A DNA stretch of 64,000 bases from an uncultured Alphaproteobacteria bacterium (GCA_963730645.1 CAVSSN010000012.1:242853-306852); one strand, 5' to 3'. Numbered from the stretch's first letter, positions 4,670 to 22,646 are shown. Numbers and translations are program-made. Notes: a model not told the origin generated them from the sequence alone.

Positions 4670-5713
4670 TCAGCGGCCCTCGGGCGCGGCGCTTTGCACC
4701 GCCGCCGGGGTGGCGCGTCGCCACGTCGTGAGGCGATCGGCAAAGGCGCGAAACGGCGCCAGCCATTGCGAGATGCGGTCGCGGCCGACCAGCACGATGG
4801 TGATGAGCAGGAGGCCGATCCAGAACTGCCAGTATTGCGGCGTCAGCGTCGCGATATAGTCCTGCATGAATTTGTAGATCACCGCGCCGATCAGCCCGCC
4901 ATAGAGATAGCCGGTGCCGCCGATGATGAGGACGAGCAGGAGATCGGCCGATCGCTCCAGCGACAGCACGTCGAGCGAGCAGAACGCCGTGGTCTGCGTC
5001 AGCAACGCACCGGCGATGCCGGCAAAGAACGCCGAGATGGTGTAGACCGCGACCAGCCGGCCGTTGACCGAAATGCCGACCGCGGCGGCGCGCAGTGCAT
5101 TGCCCTTCACCGATTGCAGCGACAGGCCGAACGGCGAATGCACGATGCGCCGCATGATCAGGAAGCAGACGAACAGCACGATGAGGCAATAGGTGTAGGC
5201 GGTGTGGCCGAACAGATCGAACCGGAACATGCCGAGGATCGGCTGCATGGTGATGCCCTGCAGGCCGTCGGCGCCGCCGGTGAGGTCGGAAAAGCGGTTG
5301 GCGAGTTCGCGCAGCAGCAGCGAGACGCCGAGCGTCACCATCAGCCGCGTCAGGTCGGAGCCGCGCAGCACCAGAAAGCTGGTGACGAAGCCAAGCACTG
5401 CGGCGGCGAGCCCCGCCAGCACCAGCGCAATGACCGGCTCGTTGATGATGGCGTACTTGGCGACAAGGCCGGCGAAATATCCGGCAAATCCGAAGAACGC
5501 CGCATGGCCGAGCGAGATGATGCCGGCATAGCCGAGGATGAGGTCGAGCGAGAGCGCGAACAGCGCGAGGATCGCGGTCTCGGTGAGGATCAGGTGTTTG
5601 CCGGGGAACAGCCAGATGGTGGCGAAGGCGAAGACCCAGAACGCGATTTCGAGCGGCGACCAGCGCGCGCGCCGCGCGAGGTAGCCTTTGACTTCGGTTT
5701 CCAGCGCCGCCAT
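4670..5713 (-). CDS. livM: branched-chain amino acid ABC transporter permease (LivM type)
   Basis: 347-aa polytopic ORF ...SLDLILGYAGIISLGHAAFFGFAGY..., adjacent to livG and livH. Confidence 0.9.
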   Translation of the reverse strand: MAALETEVKGYLARRARWSPLEIAFWVFAFATIWLFPGKHLILTETAILALFALSLDLILGYAGIISLGHAAFFGFAGYFAGLVAKYAIINEPVIALVLAGLAAAVLGFVTSFLVLRGSDLTRLMVTLGVSLLLRELANRFSDLTGGADGLQGITMQPILGMFRFDLFGHTAYTYCLIVLFVCFLIMRRIVHSPFGLSLQSVKGNALRAAAVGISVNGRLVAVYTISAFFAGIAGALLTQTTAFCSLDVLSLERSADLLLVLIIGGTGYLYGGLIGAVIYKFMQDYIATLTPQYWQFWIGLLLITIVLVGRDRISQWLAPFRAFADRLTTWRRATPAAVQSAAPEGR

Positions 5714-5717
5714 CGCG

Positions 5718-6578
5718 TCACCGCGCCGCGCTGCGGGCGAACAGGCCCTGCGGACGCCAGATCAGGACGACGATCATGATGGTGTAGATGACGAAGGCGC
5801 CGAGCTTCGGCACGTAATACTTGCCGGCGACGTCGCCGATGCCGAGCACGATCGAGGCGAGGAACGGCCCGGTGATGCTCGTCGTGCCGCCGACCGTCAC
5901 CACGATCAGAAAGTAGATCATGTACTTGAGCGGGAAGGTCGGATCGAGGCCGAGGATTTCCGCACCGAGCGCGCCGCCGAGCCCGGCGAGGCCGGAGCCG
6001 AACGCGAACGTCACGCCGAACACCGCGCCGACATTGATGCCGAGCCCGCGCGCGACGCGCTGATCGTCGACCGCGGCGCGCAGCCGGCTGCCGAACCGCG
6101 TCCTGGCGAGGATGAGCTGCAGCGCGATCGTGAGCACGCCGCACACCGCGATGATGAGCAGCCGATAGCGGCCCATGCCGATGCCGAACACATTGAACTG
6201 GCCCTGCAGCGCATTCGGAATCTGCACGAACTGCTGCGACGAGCCCATGAAATAGTCGACGCCCGCCACCGACATGAAGACGAGGCCGATGGTGAACAGC
6301 ACCTGGTCGAGATGGCTGCGGGCGTAGACGTGGACGTAGAGCGTGCGCTCCAGGATGCCGCCGATCAGGGCCGACACCAGGAACGCGATCGGCAACCCGA
6401 GCAGGAACGGCACGCCCATGCGGTTGACCAGCACGACCGTGACGTAGCCGCCCGCCATGGCGAACGAGCCGTGGGCGAGATTGATGAAATTCATCAGGCC
6501 GAGCGTGACGGACAATCCGCACGCCAGCACGAACAGCAGCATGCCGTAGGCGACACCGTCGAACAGGATGGTCAGCAT
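5718..6578 (-). CDS. livH: branched-chain amino acid ABC transporter permease (LivH type)
   Basis: ORF 5718..6635. Start trimmed to MLTILFDGVAYGMLLFVLACGLSVTLGLMNFINLAHG (cat at 6576-6578). Confidence 0.88.
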   Translation of the reverse strand: MLTILFDGVAYGMLLFVLACGLSVTLGLMNFINLAHGSFAMAGGYVTVVLVNRMGVPFLLGLPIAFLVSALIGGILERTLYVHVYARSHLDQVLFTIGLVFMSVAGVDYFMGSSQQFVQIPNALQGQFNVFGIGMGRYRLLIIAVCGVLTIALQLILARTRFGSRLRAAVDDQRVARGLGINVGAVFGVTFAFGSGLAGLGGALGAEILGLDPTFPLKYMIYFLIVVTVGGTTSITGPFLASIVLGIGDVAGKYYVPKLGAFVIYTIMIVVLIWRPQGLFARSAAR

Positions 6579-6695
6579 GGCCGGCCGTACGCTCCCCTGG
6601 CGCAGGCTATGATAGCAACGAAACGAAGTCGTCACCTACTTTCGTTGCGCGAAATGACGCATCAGACATCAACGCCGCGCCTTCGGCTCGGCGCG

Positions 6696-6823
6696 CTCCC
6701 TCTCCCCGCGTGCGGGGAGAGGGTTGGGGTGAGGGGGCCTATCCGCTTGGCTCAGAATCGCGGAGACGCCCCCTCACCCGCCTGCGCTTCGCGCGACGAC
6801 CTCTCCCCGCGCGCGGGGAGAGG
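6696..6823. repeat. REP/MITE-like element, family D (CTCTCCCCGCGnGCGGGGAGAGG hairpins flanking GGGTGAGGGGGCC...GCCCCCTCACCC)
   Basis: Nested palindromes. A near-identical copy lies at 42891-43020, with relatives at 13621 and 63883. Confidence 0.85.
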
Positions 6824-6833
6824 TGAAGAAACA

Positions 6834-8012
6834 TCACTTCTTCTCCGCGGCCTTCACGGGATCCTTGACGTCCTTGAAGGTGGCGAATTCGACGTTGTAG
6901 AGCTCGCCGTTCTTCTTCTCGACCTTGCGGATGTAGACGTTCTGGATGATGTCGCGCGTGTCCGGATCGATCGAGATCGGGCCGCGCGGGCTTTCCCAGC
7001 TCATGCCCTTCATGGCGGCGACCAGCGAATCGCCGTCGGTCTTGCCGCCGTTCTTTTTCAGCGCCTCGTACATCAGGTGCATGCCGTCGTAGCCGCTGAC
7101 CGCCATGAAGTTCGGCCGCAGGTTGTTGTTCGCCTTCTTGAACGCCTCGACGAAGGCCTTGTTGGCCGGCGAGTCGTGGTCGGCCGAGTAGAAGTGCGCC
7201 GTCACGGTGCCGATGATCTGGTCGCCCATGTTGTTGAGCAGGTCGTCGTCGGTGACGTCGCCCGGGCCGATGATCTTGATGCCGGCCTTGTCGAGGCCGC
7301 GCTCGAGGAACTGCTTGGCGAACGCGCCACCCTGGCCGGACGGCACGAACACGAAGATGGCGTCGGGCTTGGCGTCGGCGGCGCGCTGCAGGAACGGCGC
7401 GAAGTCCGGGTTCGCCAGCGGGAAGCGGATGGCTTCGATCACCTGCCCGCCCTTCTTGGCGAATTCGCCCCCGAAGGACTTCTCGGCGTCGGTCCCCGGC
7501 GCGTAGTCGGACACCATGGTGACGACCTTCTTGATGCCGTTGTCGGCCGCCCAGTCGGCGATCGGCACGCTCGACTGCGCCAGCGTGAAGCTGGTGCGCA
7601 CGATGTAGGGCGACTTCTCGGTGATGATCGAGGTGCCGGCCGCGGTGACGATCTCCGGAACCTTGGCTTCGGTGGCGATCGGCGCGACCGCGAGCGCCGC
7701 CGGCGTCACGCCGAAGCCGGCGAGGAACGTCACCTTGTCGTTGACGACGAACTCCTGCGCGATGCGCTTGGTGTTGTCGGGAACGGCGCCGTCATCCTTG
7801 ATGATGACTTCGACTTTCTTGCCGGCGACGGTGTCGCCGTTCTGCGCCTGGAACAGTTTGATGGCGGCGGAAATCTGCTTGCCGGTCGAGGCCTGCGGGC
7901 CGGTCATCGGCAGGATGAAGCCGATCTTGACCGTGCTCTGCGCGAACGCGCCGCCGGCCGCGAAAGTGCCGAGCGCGAGCGCGGTCCCGGCGAGGAAGTA
8001 CCTGCGCAACAT
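6834..8012 (-). CDS. ABC transporter substrate-binding protein (LivK / branched-chain amino acid-binding family)
   Basis: 392-aa ORF with signal peptide MLRRYFLAGTALALGTFAAGGAFA followed by QSTVKIGFILPMTGPQASTGKQ. Confidence 0.9.
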   Translation of the reverse strand: MLRRYFLAGTALALGTFAAGGAFAQSTVKIGFILPMTGPQASTGKQISAAIKLFQAQNGDTVAGKKVEVIIKDDGAVPDNTKRIAQEFVVNDKVTFLAGFGVTPAALAVAPIATEAKVPEIVTAAGTSIITEKSPYIVRTSFTLAQSSVPIADWAADNGIKKVVTMVSDYAPGTDAEKSFGGEFAKKGGQVIEAIRFPLANPDFAPFLQRAADAKPDAIFVFVPSGQGGAFAKQFLERGLDKAGIKIIGPGDVTDDDLLNNMGDQIIGTVTAHFYSADHDSPANKAFVEAFKKANNNLRPNFMAVSGYDGMHLMYEALKKNGGKTDGDSLVAAMKGMSWESPRGPISIDPDTRDIIQNVYIRKVEKKNGELYNVEFATFKDVKDPVKAAEKK

Positions 8013-8131: not shown

Positions 8132-8250
8132 GTCATTCCGGGGCCGAGCGAAGCGAGGAGCCCGGAATCCATAGCCACAGTGTCGAGCGAACTCAGTGCC
8201 AGTTTGTGGTTATGGATTCCGGGCTCGCGCTACGCGCGCCCCGGAATGAC
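8132..8250. repeat. REP/MITE-like element, family B (GTCATTCCGGGGCCGAGCGnAGCGAGGAGCCCGGAATCCATAGCCACA ... ATGGATTCCGGGCTCGC...GCGCCCCGGAATGAC)
   Basis: Terminal inverted GTCATTCCGG/CCGGAATGAC. Copies at 17993 and 22544, half copy near 41091. Confidence 0.85.
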
Positions 8251-8258
8251 GGCAGAGG

Positions 8259-8584
8259 TTACCCGCCGCCGCTGCGGACGTAGGCCCACAGCGCGTTGAC
8301 ATCCTCAGCGCTGACCTTGTCGCGCCACGGCGGCATGCCGTTGCCTTTGCCGTTGAGCACCGAGGTTGTGAAGCGCTCGGCGGCGTCCTTCGGAAATTTG
8401 CGCAGGTCGAAGGTGAGCGTGCTGGTGTTGACCATGTCGCGGCCATGACACGGCGAGCAGACATCGTTGAAGAGGTCGCGGCCCTGATCGATGAGGTCGT
8501 CATCGGCAGCGTGGGCGCAATCGGGGCGAATACCAAAACTGCAAATGCGGTAACAAGCAAACACTTTGCAATGCAGACTGTCAT
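8259..8584 (-). pseudogene. small periplasmic monohaem cytochrome c; frame interrupted as assembled
   Basis: Signal peptide MTVCIAKCLLVTAFAVLVFAPIAP lies in the frame of ORF 8210..8584. The mature part AHAADDDLIDQGRDLFNDVCSPCHGRDM...GMPPW... (CxxCH) lies in ORF 8259..8618. Length 326 = 3n+2, a net -1 near 8515. The start codon sits inside the family A repeat. Confidence 0.75.
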
Positions 8585-8660
8585 GCCCCGCGAAGGCGGG
8601 GCATCCAGTACTCACCACATTGCGGCGAGTCTACTGGATCGTCTCGCGCTTCGCGAACGC
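8580..8660. repeat. REP/MITE-like element, family A variant
   Basis: GTCATGCCCCGCGAAGGCGGGGCATCCAGTACTC ... CTACTGGATCGTCTCGCGCTTCGCGA. Confidence 0.8.
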
Positions 8661-8720
8661 CCTACTCGACAGCCGCAGGGGGGCGGGAGTCGACCCGCTC
8701 ACACCTTCTTGGTGCGCAGG

Positions 8721-10682
8721 CTACGCGACCTGGAGCGGCGGGACCCACGGCTTGTCGGCCCACGCCACACCTTTGCGCGCGACCTGGACGTCGAGCAGGT
8801 AGGGCTTGCCCTCCACCGTGTGCTGGCGCGCGCGAGCGAGCGCTTCGCGCAGTTGCGCGGGATTCTCCACCACTTCGCCGTCGACGCCGAAACCCTTGGC
8901 GATCGCCGCCATGTTCATGTCGGGGCTGCCGAGATAGTCGTGATAGAATTGCCGCGTCTGCACCATGCGGCCGCTCGGCACGTTGTTGATCACGCGCGAG
9001 TGCGGGCCGCCATAGGCGTGGTTGTTGTAGACCACGACGATGACCGGCAGTTCGAGCCGCGCCATGTTCCACAGCGCCGTCGGGCCGAAGGTGAACGAGC
9101 CGTCGCCGACCATGCAGATGACCTGCTGGTTCGGCCGCGCGAGCTTGACGCCCGCCGACGTGCCGACGCCCGAGCCGAGGTGTGCGCCGTAGTAGAAGAA
9201 CAGCTCGCGGCCGCCGACCGGATTGAAATCGAAACTGTGCAGGTTCACCGAGCCGGCCTCGTGCACGATGATGGCGTCGGGATCGGCGAACTGTGCGATC
9301 TCCCAGGTCAGGCGGTCGGCGATGATCGGCGCCTCGTCCCAGTCCGGGCCATTGACGATTTGCGCGCGGGCGTCCTTCGCCCATTCGCTGAACTTGCGCA
9401 CCTCGACGGCGCGGTCGGTCGCCTTCTGCTTGAGCGAGGCCGTCATCAATTGCCCGACCGCCAGGATCAGATCGTCGAGCCCGTAGCCGACGTCGGCCAC
9501 CAGCGGGACTTCGGTGAGCATCACGTTGCCCATGCTGTTGAAGTCGATGCGCATGTCGATGAATTTCGGCCCGCGCGGCACCAGCGGCGTCGGGCCGCTA
9601 TGCTGGAACTTGTTGCCGATGTTGATCACCACGTCGGGGTTCTTCGGGAAGGTCAGCTTGCCGAGCGTGTTGCCGGCGAGGTTGCCGACCCAGAGCGGAT
9701 GGTTTTCCGGGAAATTGGCGTAGAGCTGGCGCACCTGCGTCACCGGCATGCCGAGCATTTCGGCGAGCTTGATCGCCTTGGCGGTGGCCTTCGCCTTGTA
9801 GATCTCGTCGCCGACGACCATCAGCGGCATCTTGGCTTCGACCAGAAGCTTCGCGGCGCGCTGCACCTCGTCCGGGTTCGGACCGCACGCGCATGCGCGG
9901 ATCGATCTGCACCTGATCGATGATCTCGGTGCGCACACGTTCGTCGTTGTAGTCGGAATGCCAGGAGATGTAGGCGGGACCGTAAGGCGGCGTCCACGCC
10001 GCCTTGTAGGCGCGTCGCACGGTCTCCGGGATCATGTCGGGGCGTTGCGCCAGCCAGGTGTACTTGGTGATCGGCTGGACCATCTGTTCCTGGTAGGCGA
10101 CCTCCTCGAAGCCGTCGCGTCCGGCGCGGCGCGACTGGTCGGTGCGGTAGGAGTAGAACGACGAGCGGCGTCTGCTCCTTGAACGCGTTGAACATCTGGC
10201 CGATGGCGTTGGCCATGCCGACGACGCCCGCCTGCATGACCATGGCGGGCTCGCCCGAGGCCTTGACGTAGCCGGCAGCCATGGCGGCGCCGGGTCCTTC
10301 GTGCGGCGTGAGGATGTATTTGAGCTGCGGACGATCGACCAGCGCCTCATAGAACTGCGCATCTTCGCTGGCCGAATTGCCGAACACGTATTTCACGCCC
10401 GAGGCGATGAGCTGCTCGGCGAAGCACGCGCCGCCTGGCCCTGGAATGCTTTCACGCCGGCGACGGCGGCGCGGCACTCGCTGCGGCAGGCGCTGCCGGC
10501 GCAGCGGCGGCGGGCGCGGCGGGCGGGGGAGTCGGGCCGGCGCCTTGCGCGTAGCTCACCGAAGTGACCGCGCTGAGCACGGATTGCGCCGCGGTCGCGG
10601 TGAGGCCGGCCTTGGTCAGGCCGCTCACGAAGCCGCGCCGGGAAATGGAATGCGACAGGTATTTGACGACCAGCTCTCTCAT
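8721..10682 (-). pseudogene. thiamine-diphosphate-dependent enzyme (acetolactate synthase / pyruvate oxidase superfamily) with N-terminal twin-arginine signal; three frame interruptions as assembled
   Basis: Tat signal MRELVVKYLSHSISRRGFVSGLTKAGLTATAAQSVLSAVTSVSYA plus a Pro/Ala linker (ORF 10452..10682). Pyr domain ...KYVFGNSASEDAQFYEAL...TPHEGPGAAMAAGY (ORF 9821..10477). Middle part ...FYSYRTDQSRRAGRDGFEEVAYQEQMVQPITKY... (ORF 9598..10362). Central and PP domains with GDGSFTFGPTALWNMARLELPVIVVVYNNHAYGG (ORF 8721..9938). Frames step 2>1>0>2, giving three +1 shifts near 10455, 10160 and 9892. Confidence 0.85.
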
Positions 10683-10710
10683 CGTTCGCTCCCTGAAATC
10701 CGTTGCATCG

Positions 10711-11029
10711 TCACGCTGGACGCACTTGCTCTTTTGCTATTTCGCCGCCAGCCGGCTTCACGTTCGGCCCGAAGTCGGTGCCGAGGTAGTCCGCCATCAA
10801 CTTGACCTCGTCCGGCGTCCACAAACCGCCGCGGCCGATCATGCGATAGATCGTGGCTTCCCAGCCGCGCCGTTCCTGGCGGTGATCGCGGAACATCGCG
10901 TCGGTGTGGCACTGGAAACATTTGCCCATCACCAGCGCGCGGCCCGGAAGCTCCGGTTGCTGCGCCGATGCCGGCGCGGCCAGCGCCAAGCGGCGCACAG
11001 GCCAGCAGAATTTTTGGCCAGATCGTCAT
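10711..11029 (-). pseudogene. small periplasmic monohaem cytochrome c; frame interrupted as assembled
   Basis: ATG at 11029 sits behind GGGGAG and starts MTIWPKILLA.... The mature part ...LALAAPASAQQPELPGRALVMGKCFQCHTDAMFRDH... (CxxCH) lies in ORF 10711..10998. Length 319 = 3n+1, with the shift near 11000. Confidence 0.7.
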
Positions 11030-11215
11030 TGCATCTCCCCCGTTTGGCGTGCGTCGCGCGCGTCGTGCGCTCACGGCCGGATCGATTGAACGGCATGGTA
11101 GTCCAACGCCCGCCTAGGCGCCAGACGAGCGAGCGACTTCGCAGCCGCGCGAAGCGTGCTAACATTGACGAAAATAGGCGAAGATCTGAAGACACGAAAC
11201 AGGAGGAGGCACCCG

Positions 11216-12217
11216 ATGGCCAAGATCGTGCTCGGGCTCGGATCATCCCACACGCCGATGCTGCTCGCGTCCGACGAGACGCTGCCGCTCTTTCTCGAGA
11301 CCGATCAGAAGATCAAGCACCGCGACAAGGAGGGCCGGCCCGCCACCTACGCCGAGCTTCTGGAAAAGGCCGACCCGAAGATGGCCGATATGGTGGCGCC
11401 GGCGCAGCTCGCCGCACGGCAGAACAAGGCGCGCGACGCGACTGCGCGTCTGGGCAAAACGCTCAACAGCGCCAAGACTCGATGCGCTCATCGTTTTGAG
11501 TGACGACCAGGACGAAGCCTATCTGGAAGACGCCCGGCCGACCTTTGCGATCTATTACGGCGATACGATCATCAACAGCAACGAGCAGCACGAGCAATAC
11601 CACCAGCGCTTCCCGGAATGGTACGTGAAGAACCGGCAGGCCTTTTTCGAGGACAACAAGCCGCGCGCCTATCCGGTCGACAGCAAGCTTGCCGTTCATC
11701 TCATCGATTGGCTGATGGACAACGGCTTCGACCCGGCGTCCTCGAAGCGCATGCGCGAGGGCGAAGGCGAAGGCCACGGCATGGCCTATGTGCACCGCCG
11801 CCTGATGGAGGGGAAAAACCCGATCCCCATCGTGCCGGTGTTCCTCAACACCTATTTTGCGCCGAACCAGCCGCGGCCGAAGCGCTGCTATGAATTCGGC
11901 CAAGGCCATCCGCAAAGCGGTCGAGAGCTACGCCGGCGATGCGCGCGTCGGCATCATCGCGTCGGGCGGCTTGAGTCACTTTCTGGTGGACGAGGATTTC
12001 GACCGCGCGATTTTGAAAGCGTGCGCCGACAAGGACGCGACATTTCTGCAGAACCTGCCGCGCAACAAGCTCAATGCCGGCAGCTCGGAAATCCTCAACT
12101 GGGTCGGCATCGCCGGCGCGCTGCGAGCATCTCGACCTGAACTGGTTCGAATACGTGCCCGGCTATCGCACGCCGGCCGGTACCGGTACCGGATTGAGCT
12201 TCGCAAGCTGGGCGTAA
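11216..12217 (+). pseudogene. class III extradiol ring-cleavage dioxygenase (LigB family); three frame interruptions as assembled
   Basis: MAKIVLGLGSSHTPMLL... (ORF 11156..11503), then LDALIVLSDDQDEAYLEDARPTFAIYYGD...GHGMAYVH... (ORF 11496..12140), then [34 protein letters not shown]... (ORF 11857..12234), then EHLDLNWFEYVPGYRTPAGTGTGLSFASWA stop. Frames step 2>0>1>2, with +1 shifts near 11477, 11900 and 12124. Confidence 0.8.
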
Positions 12218-12414
12218 ACATCACGAAATTTTGATCCGATTCATCGCCGGAATTTTCGTTCGGGGCAATTGTGTTTTAGTCCCGGCGAGCCGGCGCAATT
12301 TAGAGTGATTGGCGGCGGCCAATGGCGATTCCTACCTGTGCGTGGCTGGTCACATGTCGTGACCGGGGAGGTCGAATATTGATCTCTTCAAATGCCATTC
12401 GACAGGAGTGTCTC

Positions 12415-12728: not shown

Positions 12729-13613
12729 TTACGGCGCGAAGCCGTAAAGCCGCGCCGGGTTGTCGACCAGAATGCGCTGTCGCGTCGCCGCGTCCGGCGT
12801 CCAGTCATGGAACAGCTCGTAGAGATGCCCGACATCCGGCATCTCGGCTTCCATGCGCGGATGCGGCCAGTCGCCGCCCCAGACCAGACGCTCCGGATTC
12901 TCCGCGACCAGCGCCTGATGGAACGCGCGCACTTCGGGATAATCCGGCGCGTTGTCGCTCAATCGGTGCGCGCCCGAGACCTTGACCCAGCAGCCGCCCT
13001 GGCCGAGCAGGCGCAGCATGCTCTGGAAACCCGCCGTGCCGATGCCGGCGCGCGCGTCGGTGCGGCCCATGTGGTCGATCATGATGGGCAGGCCGATCGA
13101 TTGCACGATCGGGATCGTCTCCGGCAAATCCTTGACGTCGATCCAGAGCTGCAGGTGCCAGCCGAGTTCTTTCATGGCCGGCGCATGCACGCGCGCGGCT
13201 TCGAGCGGAACGCCGCCGCGATAGTGCAATTGTCCGCCGCGGAAGAAATGATTGAAGCGCAGGCCGCGCACGCCGAGCGCATGCCAGCGACGCAATTCCG
13301 CGGCCGGGACATCGGCATCCGCCACCGCAACGCCGCGCAGCCGCGCCGGCGTGCGCGCGAGCGCGTCGAGCATCGCGGAATTGTCGTTGCCGTGGGCGCT
13401 GCCCTGCACCAGCACGCCGCGATCGAAGCCGACGGTGTCGAGCATGCGCAGATATTTTTCCAGCGGCGCGTCCGGCGGCGTGTAGCTGCGATCCTCCGCG
13501 TAGGGAAATTTCGACGCCGGGCCGAACACGTGCGCATGCGTGTCGCACGCGTTGCGCGGCGGCGGAAATTTCGGCCGCGTCGGCTCGCGCGGCGGCGGGC
13601 AGCCGGGGATCAT
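12729..13613 (-). CDS. amidohydrolase-2 family protein, LigI (2-pyrone-4,6-dicarboxylate lactonase)-like paralog
   Basis: ORF 12729..13721 trimmed to MIPGCPPPREPTRPKFPPPRNACDTHAHVFGP.... Also ...VQGSAHGNDNSAMLDAL..., ...MIDHMGR... and ...VWGGDWPHP.... Confidence 0.8.
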   Translation of the reverse strand: MIPGCPPPREPTRPKFPPPRNACDTHAHVFGPASKFPYAEDRSYTPPDAPLEKYLRMLDTVGFDRGVLVQGSAHGNDNSAMLDALARTPARLRGVAVADADVPAAELRRWHALGVRGLRFNHFFRGGQLHYRGGVPLEAARVHAPAMKELGWHLQLWIDVKDLPETIPIVQSIGLPIMIDHMGRTDARAGIGTAGFQSMLRLLGQGGCWVKVSGAHRLSDNAPDYPEVRAFHQALVAENPERLVWGGDWPHPRMEAEMPDVGHLYELFHDWTPDAATRQRILVDNPARLYGFAP

Positions 13614-13620
13614 GGCGGCA

Positions 13621-13735
13621 CTCCCTCCCCCCTTGCGGGGGAGGGTGGGGGGGGGGTCGGAGGTGAAGGAAGCGCGTCGACGATTGCGTATCACCTCGCG
13701 ACCCCCCCCTGCCCCCCCCACAAGGGGGAGGGGAA
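13621..13735. repeat. REP/MITE-like element, family D relative (CTCCCTCCCCCCTTGCGGGGGAGGG ... CCCCACAAGGGGGAGGGG)
   Basis: Palindromic G/C-run hairpins at both ends. Confidence 0.7.
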
Positions 13736-13739
13736 TAGC

Positions 13740-14709
13740 TCACTGCGGCTGGATGCCGGCGGCCTTGAGCACCGGGCCCCACTTCTCGTACTCGTCGTGA
13801 ATGAGCTTGGCGAACTCGTCCGGCGTCGAGCCGATCGGCGATGCGCCGAGCTGGAGCATGCGCTCCTTCACGTTCGGCAGCTTCGCGACTTCGGCGCAAT
13901 CCTTGGCGAGCTTGTCCTTCACCGCAGCCGGAATGTGCGCGGGCGCAAGAAAGCCCCACCACACGCCGGTGTCGTAGCCCGGCAGCGTCTCGGCGATGCT
14001 CGGCACATCCGGCAGCACCGGCGAGCGCGCCGCGGTCGTCACGCCGAGCGGGCGCACCGCGCCGGCTTTGACCTGCGCGATCGATTCCGGAATGTTGTTG
14101 ATCGACATCGGAATGTGGCCGCCGAGCAGATCGTTGAGCGTCGGCGCGCCGCCTTTGTAGGGCACCGGCGTGATGTCGACCTTGGCCATGTACTTGAGCA
14201 GTTCGCCGGCGAGATGCGGCGAGGTGCCGTTGCCGGGATGGCCGTACGACAGTTTGCCGGGCGCCGCGCGCGCCGCATCGATCACGTCCTTGACCGACTT
14301 GTACGGCGAGTCGGCGCGCACCAGCAGCATGTTCGGCGAAGTGCCGATCAGCGAGATCGGCGTGAAATCGTTGAACGGGTCGTACGGCAGCTTGGCGTAG
14401 AAATGGCCGTTGAGCGCGTGGCCGGTGGCGACGACGATCAGCGTGTAGCCATCGGGCGGCGACTTCGCCAGCGCTTCCTCGGCGATGATGCCGCCGGCGC
14501 CCGGCTTGTTCTCGATCACGATCGACTGGCCCCAGCGCTTCGACAATTCGTCGCCGAGCGTGCGCGCCACGATGTCGACCGCGCCGCCGGGCGGATAGGG
14601 CACGAGGATGCGGACGGAGCTGGGAGGGGTAGGCGTCCTGGGCGAGCGCATCGGCAGCGCCGAGTACCGTGAACGCGGCGGCGACGCAGATCCGAATCCA
14701 GACGATCAT
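13740..14709 (-). pseudogene. Bug/TctC-family tripartite tricarboxylate transporter substrate-binding protein; frame interrupted as assembled
   Basis: Signal peptide MIVWIRICVAAAFTVLGAADALAQDAYP lies in the frame of ORF 12805..14709. The mature part SSVRILVPYPPGGAVDIVARTLG... lies in ORF 13740..14651. Length is 3n+1, and the extra base fits the run gggg at 14627-14630. Confidence 0.88.
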
Positions 14710-14753
14710 GGATGTCCTCCCAAATTATTGCTGCTGCAGCCGCTCGTTCGACT

Positions 14754-15305
14754 TTAGTGATGCATCGGATGATGAGGCGCGCTATCGCCTGCTCCATAGC
14801 CTCTCAAGCCGCGATATCGCGCAATCTGATCCGGCGACAGCACATTCATCATGGCCAGATGGTATTTCAGGTGCGCCTGGCGCAGACGGCCTTGGGTCAG
14901 TGCGATCGCTTCGGTTGCCGCGCTCAGGCTCGCCGGGGTGATCTCTCGACTCGCGAACTGGCGGTCGAGATTTGTTTCCTGTTCGATCAACCGTTCGCCC
15001 AGCGGCACCGCTTCCGCCTTCATGGCTTCGAACAAGGCCGTGGTGCGCTCGCGCTGGTCAACGTTCAAATCCAGCGCGTCGGCATTCTCCAGGACGTGCA
15101 CGGGACCGGGATACCCGTTGAGCTCGGCAGGAAGCGCAAGGCCCATTCCGCGACCGGCCCGAAGGTCGGCGATCTGTTGTTCCGAAAGCGCCTTCACGGC
15201 GCGCTGATCCAGCCCTGCGTACGGCCGAGGATTCTGTGCCAGCGCGGTCGCAGCGCAGGCCGTGAATGTGACGGCGGCGATGGTGGCGCGGAGCCAGACA
15301 GTCAT
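14754..15305 (-). CDS. periplasmic Spy/CpxP-family (LTxxQ-motif) protein with His-rich C-terminus
   Basis: Signal peptide MTVWLRATIAAVTFTACAATALA, LSEQQ and LSPDQ motifs, tail PHHPMHH. Confidence 0.6.
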   Translation of the reverse strand: MTVWLRATIAAVTFTACAATALAQNPRPYAGLDQRAVKALSEQQIADLRAGRGMGLALPAELNGYPGPVHVLENADALDLNVDQRERTTALFEAMKAEAVPLGERLIEQETNLDRQFASREITPASLSAATEAIALTQGRLRQAHLKYHLAMMNVLSPDQIARYRGLRGYGAGDSAPHHPMHH

Positions 15306-15325
15306 TCGCGTCCTCCCCTATTCTC

Positions 15326-15432
15326 GTCATGCCCGGGCTTGACCCGGGCATCCATGCGGCATTGCCGCACGGACGCGGTGCCGCGCACTCAGCGAAGTGC
15401 AGATGGATTGCCGGGTCAAGCCCGGCAATGAC
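15326..15432. repeat. REP/MITE-like element, family E (GTCATGCCCGGGCTTGACCCGGGCATCCATG ... GGATTGCCGGGTCAAGCCCGGCAATGAC)
   Basis: Terminal hairpins with a GTCAT/ATGAC frame. Confidence 0.8.
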
Positions 15433-15460
15433 GAAAGGAGCGTGAATGCGCGCAGCCGCG

Positions 15461-16417
15461 CTACGCGTGCGCCTTGCGCTGCGGGTCGATGATCTTTTCG
15501 AGCTTGCCGAGCACGTGCATGCAGGGCAGCACCTGGGCGAGGCTGCCGTTCGGCTCGCGCTTTTCCTTGATGGCGGCGATGAACTCGCGGTCTTCGAGCT
15601 CGATGCCGTCCATCGACACGTCGACCTTGGAGACGTCGATCTTGTTGTCCTTGCCGTCGGACAGGTCGTCGTAGAACGCCTTGTAGGTGCCGTTGTCGCA
15701 GATGTAGCGGAAGAACGAGCCGAGCGGCCCGTCGTTGTTGAACGACAGCGACAGCGTCAGCATCGCGCCCGACGGCACGCGCGCGACGATGCCCATGTCC
15801 ATCGCGATGTTGAGCTGCGGATGGATCGGGCCCTGCACGGCGTAGCAATCCGAAATGGTTTCGCCGGCCTGATACTGGAACAGGTCGACGGTGTGCGCGG
15901 CGTGATGCCAGAGCAGGTGATCGGTCCAGCTCCGCGCATTGCCGGCGGCGTTGATGTTCTTCCTTCGGAAGAAATAGGTCTGCACGTCCATCTGCTGGAT
16001 TTTCAGCTCGCCCTTGACGATCTTCTTGTGGACGTACTGGTGGCTGGGATTGAAGCGCCGCACGTGGCCGCCCATGGCGGTGACGCCGGTTTCCTTGGCG
16101 ATCTGCACCAGCTTGTCGGCATCCTCGACCGAATCCGTCACCGGAATTTCGACCAGCACGTGCTTGCCGGCGCGCATCACCTGCTCGCCCTGGCGGAAGT
16201 GCATCTTGGTCGGCGTGGTGAGGATCACCGCGTCGGCGCGCTTGATGCCTTCGGACAGGTCGCCGGTCCAATGCTTGATGCCGTATTTCTTCGCCACCTC
16301 GGCGGTGGAGTCCTGATTGCCGCCGACCAGCGACGTCACCTCGACATCGGGAATGCGCTTGAGCGCGTCGAGATGTTTCTGACCGAAGGCCCCCTGCCCG
16401 GCTACGCAAATTTTCAT
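15461..16417 (-). CDS. ligC: 4-carboxy-2-hydroxymuconate-6-semialdehyde dehydrogenase (Gfo/Idh/MocA family, LigC type)
   Basis: MKICVAGQGAFGQKHLDAL...FNPSHQYVHKKIVKGELKIQQMDVQTYFFRRKNINAAGNARSWTDHLLWHHAAHTVDLF... closely matches my recollection of Sphingobium LigC. Adjacent to ligAB. Confidence 0.85.
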   Translation of the reverse strand: MKICVAGQGAFGQKHLDALKRIPDVEVTSLVGGNQDSTAEVAKKYGIKHWTGDLSEGIKRADAVILTTPTKMHFRQGEQVMRAGKHVLVEIPVTDSVEDADKLVQIAKETGVTAMGGHVRRFNPSHQYVHKKIVKGELKIQQMDVQTYFFRRKNINAAGNARSWTDHLLWHHAAHTVDLFQYQAGETISDCYAVQGPIHPQLNIAMDMGIVARVPSGAMLTLSLSFNNDGPLGSFFRYICDNGTYKAFYDDLSDGKDNKIDVSKVDVSMDGIELEDREFIAAIKEKREPNGSLAQVLPCMHVLGKLEKIIDPQRKAHA

Positions 16418-17992: not shown

Positions 17993-18092
17993 GTCATTCC
18001 GGGGCCGAGCGCAGCGAGGAGCCCGGAATCCATAGCCACAGGTCAGCGAATATGGATTCCGGGCTCGCCCCTTCGGGGCGCCCCGGAATGAC
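17993..18092. repeat. REP/MITE-like element, family B
   Basis: GTCATTCCGGGGCCGAGCGCAGCGAGGAGCCCGGAATCCATAGCCACA...ATGGATTCCGGGCTCGCCCCTTCGGGGCGCCCCGGAATGAC. Confidence 0.85.
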
Positions 18093-22543: not shown

Positions 22544-22646
22544 GTCATTCCGGGGCCGAGCGCAGCGAGGAGCCCGGAATCCATAACCACAGGTCAGCGA
22601 ATATGGATTCCGGGCTCGCGGGCAAGAGCCCGCGCCCCGGAATGAC
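22544..22646. repeat. REP/MITE-like element, family B
   Basis: Near-identical to the copy at 17993. Confidence 0.85.

Follow-up and report, generated by a model that had tools for sequence, protein, structure and literature searches.

Why would a thiamine diphosphate (ThDP)-dependent enzyme carry an export signal and be encoded among c-type cytochromes? Enzymes of the POX/ALS/BFDC superfamily (named for pyruvate oxidase, acetolactate synthase, and benzoylformate decarboxylase) are textbook cytoplasmic catalysts, and a c-type cytochrome is functional only outside the cytoplasm. The question is raised by a stretch of 64,000 nucleotides from an uncultured Alphaproteobacteria bacterium (GCA_963730645.1 CAVSSN010000012.1:242853-306852), here called the window, in which three co-oriented genes occupy the minus strand from 11029 to 8259 in the order cytA, ThDP enzyme, cytB. 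The original prediction, made from the sequence alone, described a ThDP enzyme with a twin-arginine translocation (Tat) signal between two cytochromes and proposed a periplasmic oxidation coupled to cytochrome c. The three genes are present at the coordinates it gave, and periplasmic oxidation remains the most economical reading, judging by the leader and the conservation of the cytochrome. With moderate confidence, we propose that cytA and the ThDP enzyme form a two-component periplasmic dehydrogenase—a Tat-exported, ThDP-loaded catalytic protein that would pass electrons from a ThDP-bound intermediate to a dedicated SorB-like cytochrome.

Pairing of the cytochrome and enzyme genes

We scanned one genome per GTDB species for orthologues and obtained 82 loci, all from metagenome-assembled genomes (MAGs). 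The carriers belong to Xanthobacteraceae and other Hyphomicrobiales, Burkholderiales (including Usitatibacter and Limnohabitans), Acidiferrobacterales, Binatia, Verrucomicrobiia, and Vicinamibacterales. By tblastn, cytA lies directly upstream of the enzyme gene on the same strand in 72 of the 82 loci, or in 72 of the 73 that have a usable upstream flank; nine of the ten cytA-negative loci have no upstream sequence. Because a hidden Markov model (HMM) of the cytA type finds a single match in the 64-kb window, and 72 of 73 loci show the two genes adjacent, the adjacency is far beyond chance. All-against-all clustering of open reading frames (ORFs) from the 82 loci left cytA as the sole neighbour kept beyond a small minority. 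Downstream, cytB is confined to an alphaproteobacterial subset and three Burkholderiales loci (L047, L048, and L071); of the two cytochromes in the original prediction, cytA is therefore a conserved neighbour and cytB is not. Conservation thus covers two genes, cytA and that of the ThDP enzyme, since cytB, the linker behind the enzyme's leader, and the aromatic-catabolic neighbourhood all vary by lineage.

The pairing extends well past the orthologues. An exhaustive search of 1.84 billion cluster representatives gave 647 matches below 1e-30. Among the top-scoring full-length representatives, ~27 are 606-659 aa long and 29-65 % identical to the query; nearly all of these have an RR leader, and most end in a tail of the form W-x-P-x-x-S-[VL]-A-x-x-R-x-[RK]-K-V. 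Below this set come leaderless proteins of 540-585 aa that start exactly at the mature domain. The groups differ in the leader, at G82, at Q520, at residue 561 (Arg in the clade, His in P0001, an intact relative of the window enzyme), and in the tail including W646; paralogues at 30-47 % identity retain the leader. Eight contigs with distant paralogues were sampled: four (L083, L089, L085, and L088) have an adjacent cytA-type cytochrome, with one, two, or three copies of the cytA-type domain, and two are too short to judge.

A larger sample came from the subclade of P0133, a protein 38 % identical to the query. Its 80 metagenome loci (46-78 % identical to P0133) were gathered in a scan built on a 6-sequence alignment (A3), and the HMM of the cytA-type domain was applied to them. 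A same-strand cytA-type gene is present in 64 of the 80, upstream or downstream, and in only a few of these is it farther than ~300 nt from the enzyme gene; most of the 16 cytochrome-negative loci lack flank. The association persists to ~35 % identity and across changes of gene order, with one to three haems. The leaderless relatives served as a control: two informative ones sit among acyl-CoA dehydrogenase, HMGL-like, MaoC, and DAO genes, and their loci hold no cytochrome and no cytA-HMM match (the contig of a third is too short). A c-type cytochrome thus appears, from the loci compared, to be an obligate neighbour of the enzyme across deep divergence. Because the one-to-one pairing persists over that distance and no other partner is conserved, the enzyme and the cytochrome probably work together.

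Export signal, active site, and proposed electron transfer

The enzyme gene (8699-10682, minus strand) encodes ~660 aa with Pyr, middle, and PP domains recognized by Pfam. It starts at ATG 10682, with AGGGAG in front, 28 nt beyond the as-read stop of cytA. The twin-arginine leader, read from the sequence as residues 1-46 (10545-10682, minus strand), runs MRELVVKYLSHSISRRGFVSGL...SYA-QG: an n-region MRELVVKYLSHSI, the motif SRRGFVSGL, a mildly hydrophobic h-region, and the c-region SYA-QG. The N-terminus as a whole is MRELVVKYLSHSISRRGFVSGLTKAGLTATAAQSVLSAVTSVSYA-QG, and ~30 Pro/Ala-rich residues follow. In an alignment of 59 orthologues from five phyla the leader is conserved from Met1 as MRELVxxYLSxxISRRGFLKGLTxAG..AAxS.LxS....AxA-Q; most orthologues read SRRGFLKGL...AHA-QE, of which the window's SRRGFVSGL...SYA-QG is a variant. 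Full-length homologues that span the entire query (100 %), residues 1-80 included, number more than 1,300. The mean hydropathy of the h-region is 0.9-1.1, against 2.1 in the Sec signal of cytA, a weak hydrophobicity that resembles that of Tat signals. With the Tat-signal HMM TIGR01409 (cutoff 16.7), a Binatia-type orthologue and a distant paralogue score 21.8 and 22.6 bits; one paralogue gives no match.

Could the enzyme nonetheless be cytoplasmic, with a fortuitous RR motif or a true start farther downstream? The window's own FVSGL leader reaches 8.5 bits on TIGR01409, under the cutoff, and the known superfamily members are cytoplasmic. However, the leader is preserved, in frame and starting at Met1, across five phyla and among paralogues at 30-47 % identity, complete with SRRGFLKGL and an AxA site; it co-varies with a c-type cytochrome, a periplasm-only partner; and the leaderless relatives begin exactly where the mature domain does. 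A downstream start, which the original prediction had named as a way for its textbook RR leader to fail, is not borne out, because the RR leader is conserved in frame across phyla. We consider a cytoplasmic location extremely improbable.

The Pro/Ala-rich linker runs ~30 aa from the signal cleavage site to the Pyr domain (10455-10544, minus strand) and holds two indels in the window. AlphaFold2 (AF2) gives it a predicted local distance difference test score (pLDDT) below 50 across residues 47-70. It is there as first described, but it shrinks to ~10 aa in the orthologues of Burkholderiales, Binatia, Verrucomicrobiia, and Acidobacteriota, so that the long form is specific to the alphaproteobacterial lineage.

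The n-region of the leader is conserved as strongly as the enzyme itself, which is unusual among signal peptides. As a separate observation, unrelated bicupin proteins (Cupin_2/Cupin_1) encoded beside distant Tat-ThDP paralogues have a similar leader, for example MRDLIAKLYHGLISRRELSKRL...ESILSSV; they are found at L085:2596-3879, L126:2305-3546 (degenerate), L112:1728-3119 (a variant form), and also from L100:5967-, and one bicupin form has a His-rich stretch after the signal. A leader common to different enzyme families suggests a common recognition factor.

The mature enzyme is easier to place. Its fragments in the window match PF02776 (TPP_enzyme_N), PF00205 (TPP_enzyme_M), and PF02775 (TPP_enzyme_C), all over the gathering scores, and the AF2 model has a pLDDT of 88 and a predicted TM-score (pTM) of 0.84. 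The best Foldseek matches of this model are 4-hydroxybenzoylformate decarboxylase, benzoylformate decarboxylase (BFDC), formolase variants, HKA synthase, CDH, and benzaldehyde lyase, at 22-24 % identity; the best PDB sequence match is BFDC (1e-35). By domain matches and predicted fold, the enzyme is a member of the ThDP-dependent decarboxylase (POX/ALS/BFDC) superfamily. The ThDP/Mg2+-binding motif GDGSFTFGPTALWNMARLELPVIVVVYNN (9021-9107, minus strand) has the form GDG-X24-NN, where a spacing of X26 had been reported, and E129, D527, G528, N553, and N554 are invariant in the ortholog alignment (A1). The HMMER alignment with BFDC pairs Glu47 with E129, Ser26 with S106, and His281 with H328, all retained, and the catalytic His70 with A152, so that this His is lost. 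With NCBIfam models the enzyme scores far under every cutoff, the best being PRK08327 (256 against 456); the BFDC equivalog, PRK07092, gives 236.3 bits against 493. Database labels on these proteins such as 'benzoylformate decarboxylase' and 'acetolactate synthase-like' are not supported—the first because the score lies under the curated BFDC cutoff and His70 is absent.

The enzyme ends in a clade-specific tail, W-x-P-P-x-Q-V-A-S-L-R-T-K-K-V (8699-8747, minus strand, from orthologue comparison); orthologues end ...PWVPPLQVASLRTKKV, i.e. ...QVASLRTKKV. Clusters with a leader conserve W646 and A653 in 81-89 % of cases, against at most 6 % among leaderless relatives, and RxRKV is found again in the tails of paralogues at 30-40 % identity.

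Does the enzyme use a flavin? A periplasmic dehydrogenase of the same kind could resemble PoxB or pyruvate oxidase (POX), with ThDP and flavin adenine dinucleotide (FAD) in one protein and cytochrome c replacing quinone or O2 as acceptor. The known oxidative members of the superfamily (POX, PoxB, and CDH) use FAD, CDH and AHAS are among the structural and sequence matches, and Tat export fits multi-cofactor enzymes. In FAD-binding members such as AHAS and POX, a dinucleotide-binding loop rich in glycine comes after the first strand of the middle domain; the corresponding loop here, PLMVVGDEIYKA, pairs in the HMMER alignment with PAIVLGPDVDAA of FAD-free BFDC (VVGDEIY with GPDV). Acidic residues stand where FAD binders carry a GxG or GGG loop, and no glycine-rich FAD loop was seen in the middle domain. 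The best matches, moreover, are FAD-free enzymes. A canonical FAD site in the middle domain, for which the original prediction had suggested a check, is therefore unlikely on this alignment with BFDC (GDEI against GPDV), and we regard a flavin mediator as improbable.

The partner, cytA (10737-11029, minus strand), was delimited from its ORF, its CFQCH site, and an intact orthologue. It starts at ATG 11029, with GGGGAG in front, and the corrected product of ~96 aa has a Sec-type signal, MT.WPKILLACAPL.LAAPASA-QQ, and a single haem site; the probable Met ligand of the haem lies in YRMIGRGG. Two families give matches that are weak and span the whole domain: NCBIfam SorB (E = 1.9e-4, 21.4 bits against a cutoff of 93) and PF09098, the haem domain of quinohaemoprotein (QH)-amine dehydrogenase (E = 0.0056, 16.8 bits against 25.2). 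Profile matches in the PDB are to 1jmx (E = 0.019) and 2blf_B (E = 0.09). These, the only relatives detected, are haem modules built into periplasmic dehydrogenases, not free carriers. None of 967 cytA homologues has a precomputed Pfam domain, which places the family, as far as these records go, outside Pfam coverage. The mono-haem cytA differs from cytB (8259-8584, minus strand), a class-I c-type cytochrome with CSPCH and MPPW that matches PF13442 clearly (54 bits against 27, E = 2e-14) and has weak NCBIfam likeness to c6, PedF, and SorU; the stop of cytB is at 8259, and its start is uncertain, with indels in the signal-encoding region.

These components suggest a route. The ~70-kDa ThDP protein would fold, bind ThDP-Mg2+, and dimerise in the cytoplasm, with its ThDP sites at the dimer interfaces. 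ThDP is available only in the cytoplasm and binds at dimer interfaces, which explains why an already folded oligomer would need Tat; the enzyme would leave through the conserved SRRxFLK leader and be cleaved after AxA. Meanwhile cytA would be exported unfolded by Sec and receive its haem in the periplasm. There, a 2-oxo acid (by decarboxylation), an aldehyde, or a 1,2-dicarbonyl would form the covalent hydroxyalkyl-ThDP (enamine). No aldehyde would be released; the haem of cytA, docked in the manner of SorB, would oxidise the intermediate in two one-electron steps, and the acyl-ThDP would be hydrolysed to a carboxylic acid. Electrons would pass onward to soluble cytochromes—cytB in Xanthobacteraceae—and then to a terminal oxidase. 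We propose oxidation by cytA because ThDP enamines are strong reductants: ferricyanide and other one-electron acceptors oxidise those of PDC, transketolase, and E1 enzymes in vitro, and Fe-S clusters do so in pyruvate:ferredoxin oxidoreductase (PFOR). From the genes and their arrangement we infer export, a physical complex, flavin-free electron transfer, and the direction of the reaction.

Several points weigh against this proposal. Adjacency is no proof of electron transfer; we know of no precedent in the superfamily for a flavin-free route from ThDP to a c-type haem, and the active site of these enzymes is buried, which makes access for the haem uncertain. The likeness of cytA to SorB and to the QH-amine dehydrogenase haem domain lies under all curated cutoffs, and Foldseek with the cytA model gave no meaningful match, as expected for a haem protein modelled without haem. 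The pairing has gaps: one orthologous locus (L054) has flank but no adjacent cytochrome, and so do the paralogous loci L084 (one of the eight sampled contigs), L123, L124, L144, and L148. The module has been found in MAGs and metagenome contigs only. In addition to the sub-cutoff TIGR01409 score of the window's leader, AF2 models residues 1-46 as three helices with a pLDDT of 80-90, in contrast to the cytA Sec signal (below 50 in its predicted model), which is not what a cleaved signal usually shows; a dedicated factor that binds the leader might lie behind this, the conserved n-region, and the likeness to the bicupin leaders.

The same evidence invites a non-redox explanation, in which a periplasmic ThDP decarboxylase, lyase, or carboligase acts on an imported compound and the cytochrome serves another enzyme (for example in oxidation of the aldehyde product) or has a regulatory or structural role. 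The nearest relatives in sequence and fold—BFDC, 4-hydroxybenzoylformate decarboxylase, benzaldehyde lyase, and HKA synthase—are non-oxidative, Ser26 and His281 of BFDC are kept, and a flavin site is not evident, all of which speak for this explanation. Yet the cytochrome is the sole constant neighbour in more than 150 loci, with no second dehydrogenase conserved; the pairing survives to ~35 % identity despite changed gene order and haem number; and His70 of BFDC is replaced by Ala in the group. We judge this explanation unlikely, though the strongest of the alternatives, and keep the two-component dehydrogenase as our preferred reading.

Sequence quality and genomic surroundings

Is the module intact in this genome? 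The stitched enzyme of the window is 98 % identical over its full length to P0001, a metagenome protein of 660 aa encoded by an unbroken gene. That gene lies on contig L087, which runs colinear with the window from 13154 to 7820 at 97 % nucleotide identity over 5.3 kb; on this contig the LigB, cytA (96 aa), enzyme, and cytB genes are all intact. Pairwise alignment with L087 puts ten single-base indels between 8528 and 10989 (strand not assigned): five in the enzyme gene (~10467, 10435, 10160, 9886, and 8720), two in cytA (10989 and 10746), and about three in the 5' part of cytB (8573, 8531, and 8528). The earlier count of three disruptions in the enzyme gene and one in each cytochrome gene was thus too low, and two gene ends move with it. 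The stop at 8721 is made by an indel, an inserted T at ~8720 that shortens the tail in the window, and the true stop of the enzyme gene is at 8701-8699; the corrected stop of cytA is at 10739-10737, not at 10711.

Ten frame-disrupting indels inside 2.8 kb, with a premature stop among them, might mark a decaying pseudogene cluster with no current function in this genome, which would be compatible with any of the functional readings. The pattern is not confined to the module, however. The flanking gene for a LigB-type dioxygenase (~11209-12230, plus strand, divergent) is broken by several single-base insertions relative to L087 at similar density, overlapping ORF runs in shifted frames occur elsewhere in the window (including ~16.5-18.1 kb and 26.1-28.8 kb), and a plot of third-position GC content (GC3) by frame is suggestive of window-wide frameshifts. 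The indels are isolated single bases, mostly insertions, outside homopolymer runs; nonsense codons come solely from the frameshifts, and the protein is still 98 % identical to its intact relative. Because an intact contig of 96-97 % identity exists and LigB is broken alike, general sequence noise is likelier than targeted decay: the frame breaks most probably reflect such noise, and a pseudogene cluster seems highly unlikely.

Promoters and terminators were sought between 7900 and 11400, and the scan gave nothing exceeding the shuffled background. Directly downstream of cytB (8132-8250) lies a palindromic intergenic element of ~100-120 nt, present also at 17993-18092 and 22544-22646. Its arms are GTCATTCCGGGGC and GCCCCGGAATGAC, and the copy downstream of cytB has an inner CCGGAATCCATA...TATGGATTCCGG; the arm sequence occurs 7 times in the window, against 0.13 expected. 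It looks like a repetitive extragenic palindromic (REP) or miniature inverted-repeat transposable element (MITE) type of repeat.

What the enzyme acts on is harder to read from its surroundings. The module is flanked in the window by further genes (12729-16417 and 4670-8012). Those upstream and divergent encode a protein of the Amidohydro_2 family, a binding protein of the TctC type, and a GFO/IDH/MocA oxidoreductase that carries OxRdtase_C; with LigB added, the set looks like a meta-cleavage cluster for protocatechuate or gallate. On the downstream side is a branched-chain-type ABC transporter, with a Peripla_BP_6 binding protein and two permeases. The lignin-fragment substrate first suggested from the aromatic cluster finds no support in conservation, because the neighbourhood varies by lineage: the LigB, Amidohydro_2, TctC, and GFO/IDH/MocA surroundings are seen only in the window and the near-identical L087. 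In other Xanthobacteraceae the module follows plsX-fabH-IHF-MerR; Burkholderiales often have a TonB-dependent receptor, and also a D-2-hydroxyacid dehydrogenase and a dienelactone hydrolase; Binatia-type loci have SsuA-like binding proteins and a leaderless cytoplasmic paralogue; and the P0133 clade is accompanied by a TonB receptor, a bicupin, CoA-transferase III, and UbiD. A TonB-dependent receptor adjoins the module in 7 orthologous loci and in 35 of the 80 P0133-subclade loci, which suggests, without being decisive, that the substrate is imported across the outer membrane. Equally suggestive and equally short of decisive is the BFDC-like active site, which would suit a 2-oxo acid of the aryl- or alkyl-glyoxylate type. 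Since the contexts differ by lineage, we do not commit to a substrate from the neighbours.

Some loci contain a second ThDP gene. The leaderless paralogue (579-590 aa) occurs in loci of Binatia, Verrucomicrobiia, and Deltaproteobacteria MAGs (L020:3839-5578, L035:3763-5511, L055:3813-5585, and L023:6557-8323), and its best model is PRK08327, as for the exported enzyme. In L020, L035, and L055 it lies directly upstream of cytA, with SsuA-family binding proteins on its flanks; in L022, L023, and L026 its place is a few kb downstream. The cytoplasmic and periplasmic versions may act on related substrates. The idea of Xsc and a sulfonate substrate was rejected, for these adjoining second ThDP genes match PRK08327, not Xsc. 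In L083 (1-3630) the ThDP genes are in tandem—P0131, with a leader, and an upstream paralogue clipped at the contig edge—followed by one cytA-type cytochrome; hetero-oligomers in some lineages are a possibility.

Known systems and the place of the enzyme

How far do characterized systems account for this pair? BFDC and 4-hydroxybenzoylformate decarboxylase (1BFD, 7ORX, and 6QSI) have the same three-domain ThDP fold (Foldseek E ~1e-38, target-normalised TM-score 0.85-0.87) and share with the window enzyme the catalytic Glu, the GDG...NN motif, the equivalents of Ser26 and His281, and a middle-domain loop of the FAD-free type. They differ at 22-24 % identity in that the window enzyme adds the Tat leader, the linker, and the conserved C-terminal tail and has Ala for His70; BFDC is cytoplasmic and non-oxidative, whereas the window enzyme is paired with a cytochrome c. 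Pyruvate oxidase/PoxB (EC 1.2.5.1) belongs to the same superfamily, oxidises hydroxyethyl-ThDP to feed the respiratory chain, and has a functionally important C-terminal peptide. However, PoxB needs FAD, works at the cytoplasmic face of the membrane, and reduces quinone; the window enzyme has an export signal, no Gly-rich loop that we could see, and a predicted c-haem acceptor.

The proposed parallel in organization is SorAB (2BLF), where a Tat-exported, cofactor-loaded catalytic subunit is joined by an adjacent small Sec-exported mono-haem cytochrome. The equivalent arrangement, a Tat catalytic gene adjoining a co-oriented Sec cytochrome c gene, is present in 72 of the 73 orthologous loci with flank and in 64 of the 80 P0133-subclade loci. 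Of all detectable relatives, two come closest to cytA, and SorB is one of them, with a weak match (21 bits against a cutoff of 93); the SorAB catalytic subunit, in contrast, is a molybdoenzyme unrelated to ThDP enzymes. For the proposed chemistry the parallel is PFOR and oxalate oxidoreductase, of the 2-oxoacid:ferredoxin oxidoreductase family, in which a metal centre oxidises a ThDP-bound intermediate stepwise, one electron at a time, without flavin; these belong to another ThDP fold family, are cytoplasmic and oxygen-sensitive, and use [4Fe-4S] clusters and low-potential acceptors. The N-terminal haem domains of the QH-amine dehydrogenase alpha subunit (1JMX; PF09098) are the best sequence match of cytA, with the pattern CxxCH ... 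R..GW ... M ... YL, but there the haem domain is fused to a far larger subunit and serves a quinone cofactor, and the match is below curated thresholds.

A characterized Tat-exported or periplasmic ThDP enzyme was not found in the searchable full-text literature, a lead on the 2,5-diketogluconate decarboxylase of Gluconobacter included, in agreement with the earlier remark that no characterized example of the arrangement was known. We know of no Enzyme Commission (EC) entry for a ThDP enzyme with cytochrome c as acceptor. The names under which these proteins stand in public records are only generic or automatic, and each of the proteins was predicted from a MAG or a metagenome. The fold and the cofactor are known, then; the location and the partner are new, and the redox mechanism is probably new. 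As a bolder and distinctly more tentative proposal, the clade would constitute a new enzyme class, a flavin-free ThDP dehydrogenase exported by Tat as a folded, ThDP-loaded oligomer and passing electrons directly from the enamine to the haem of a dedicated cytochrome c. It would comprise at least ~27 clusters at 50 % identity and be widespread among uncultured bacteria of soils and sediments, and its conserved leader, MRELVxxYLxxxISRRxF..., which is also on bicupins, would point to a shared recognition or proofreading factor.

If the dehydrogenase reading is true, ThDP enzymology would gain a new location, a new electron acceptor, and possibly a flavin-free redox mechanism, and ThDP would join the periplasmic dehydrogenase types that feed respiration, so far based on pyrroloquinoline quinone (PQQ), molybdenum, flavin, and haem. 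The conserved shared leader offers a handle for the study of Tat-substrate recognition. Because the clade is abundant among uncultured Xanthobacteraceae, Burkholderiales, Binatia, and Acidobacteriota of soils, its substrate may matter for soil carbon turnover.

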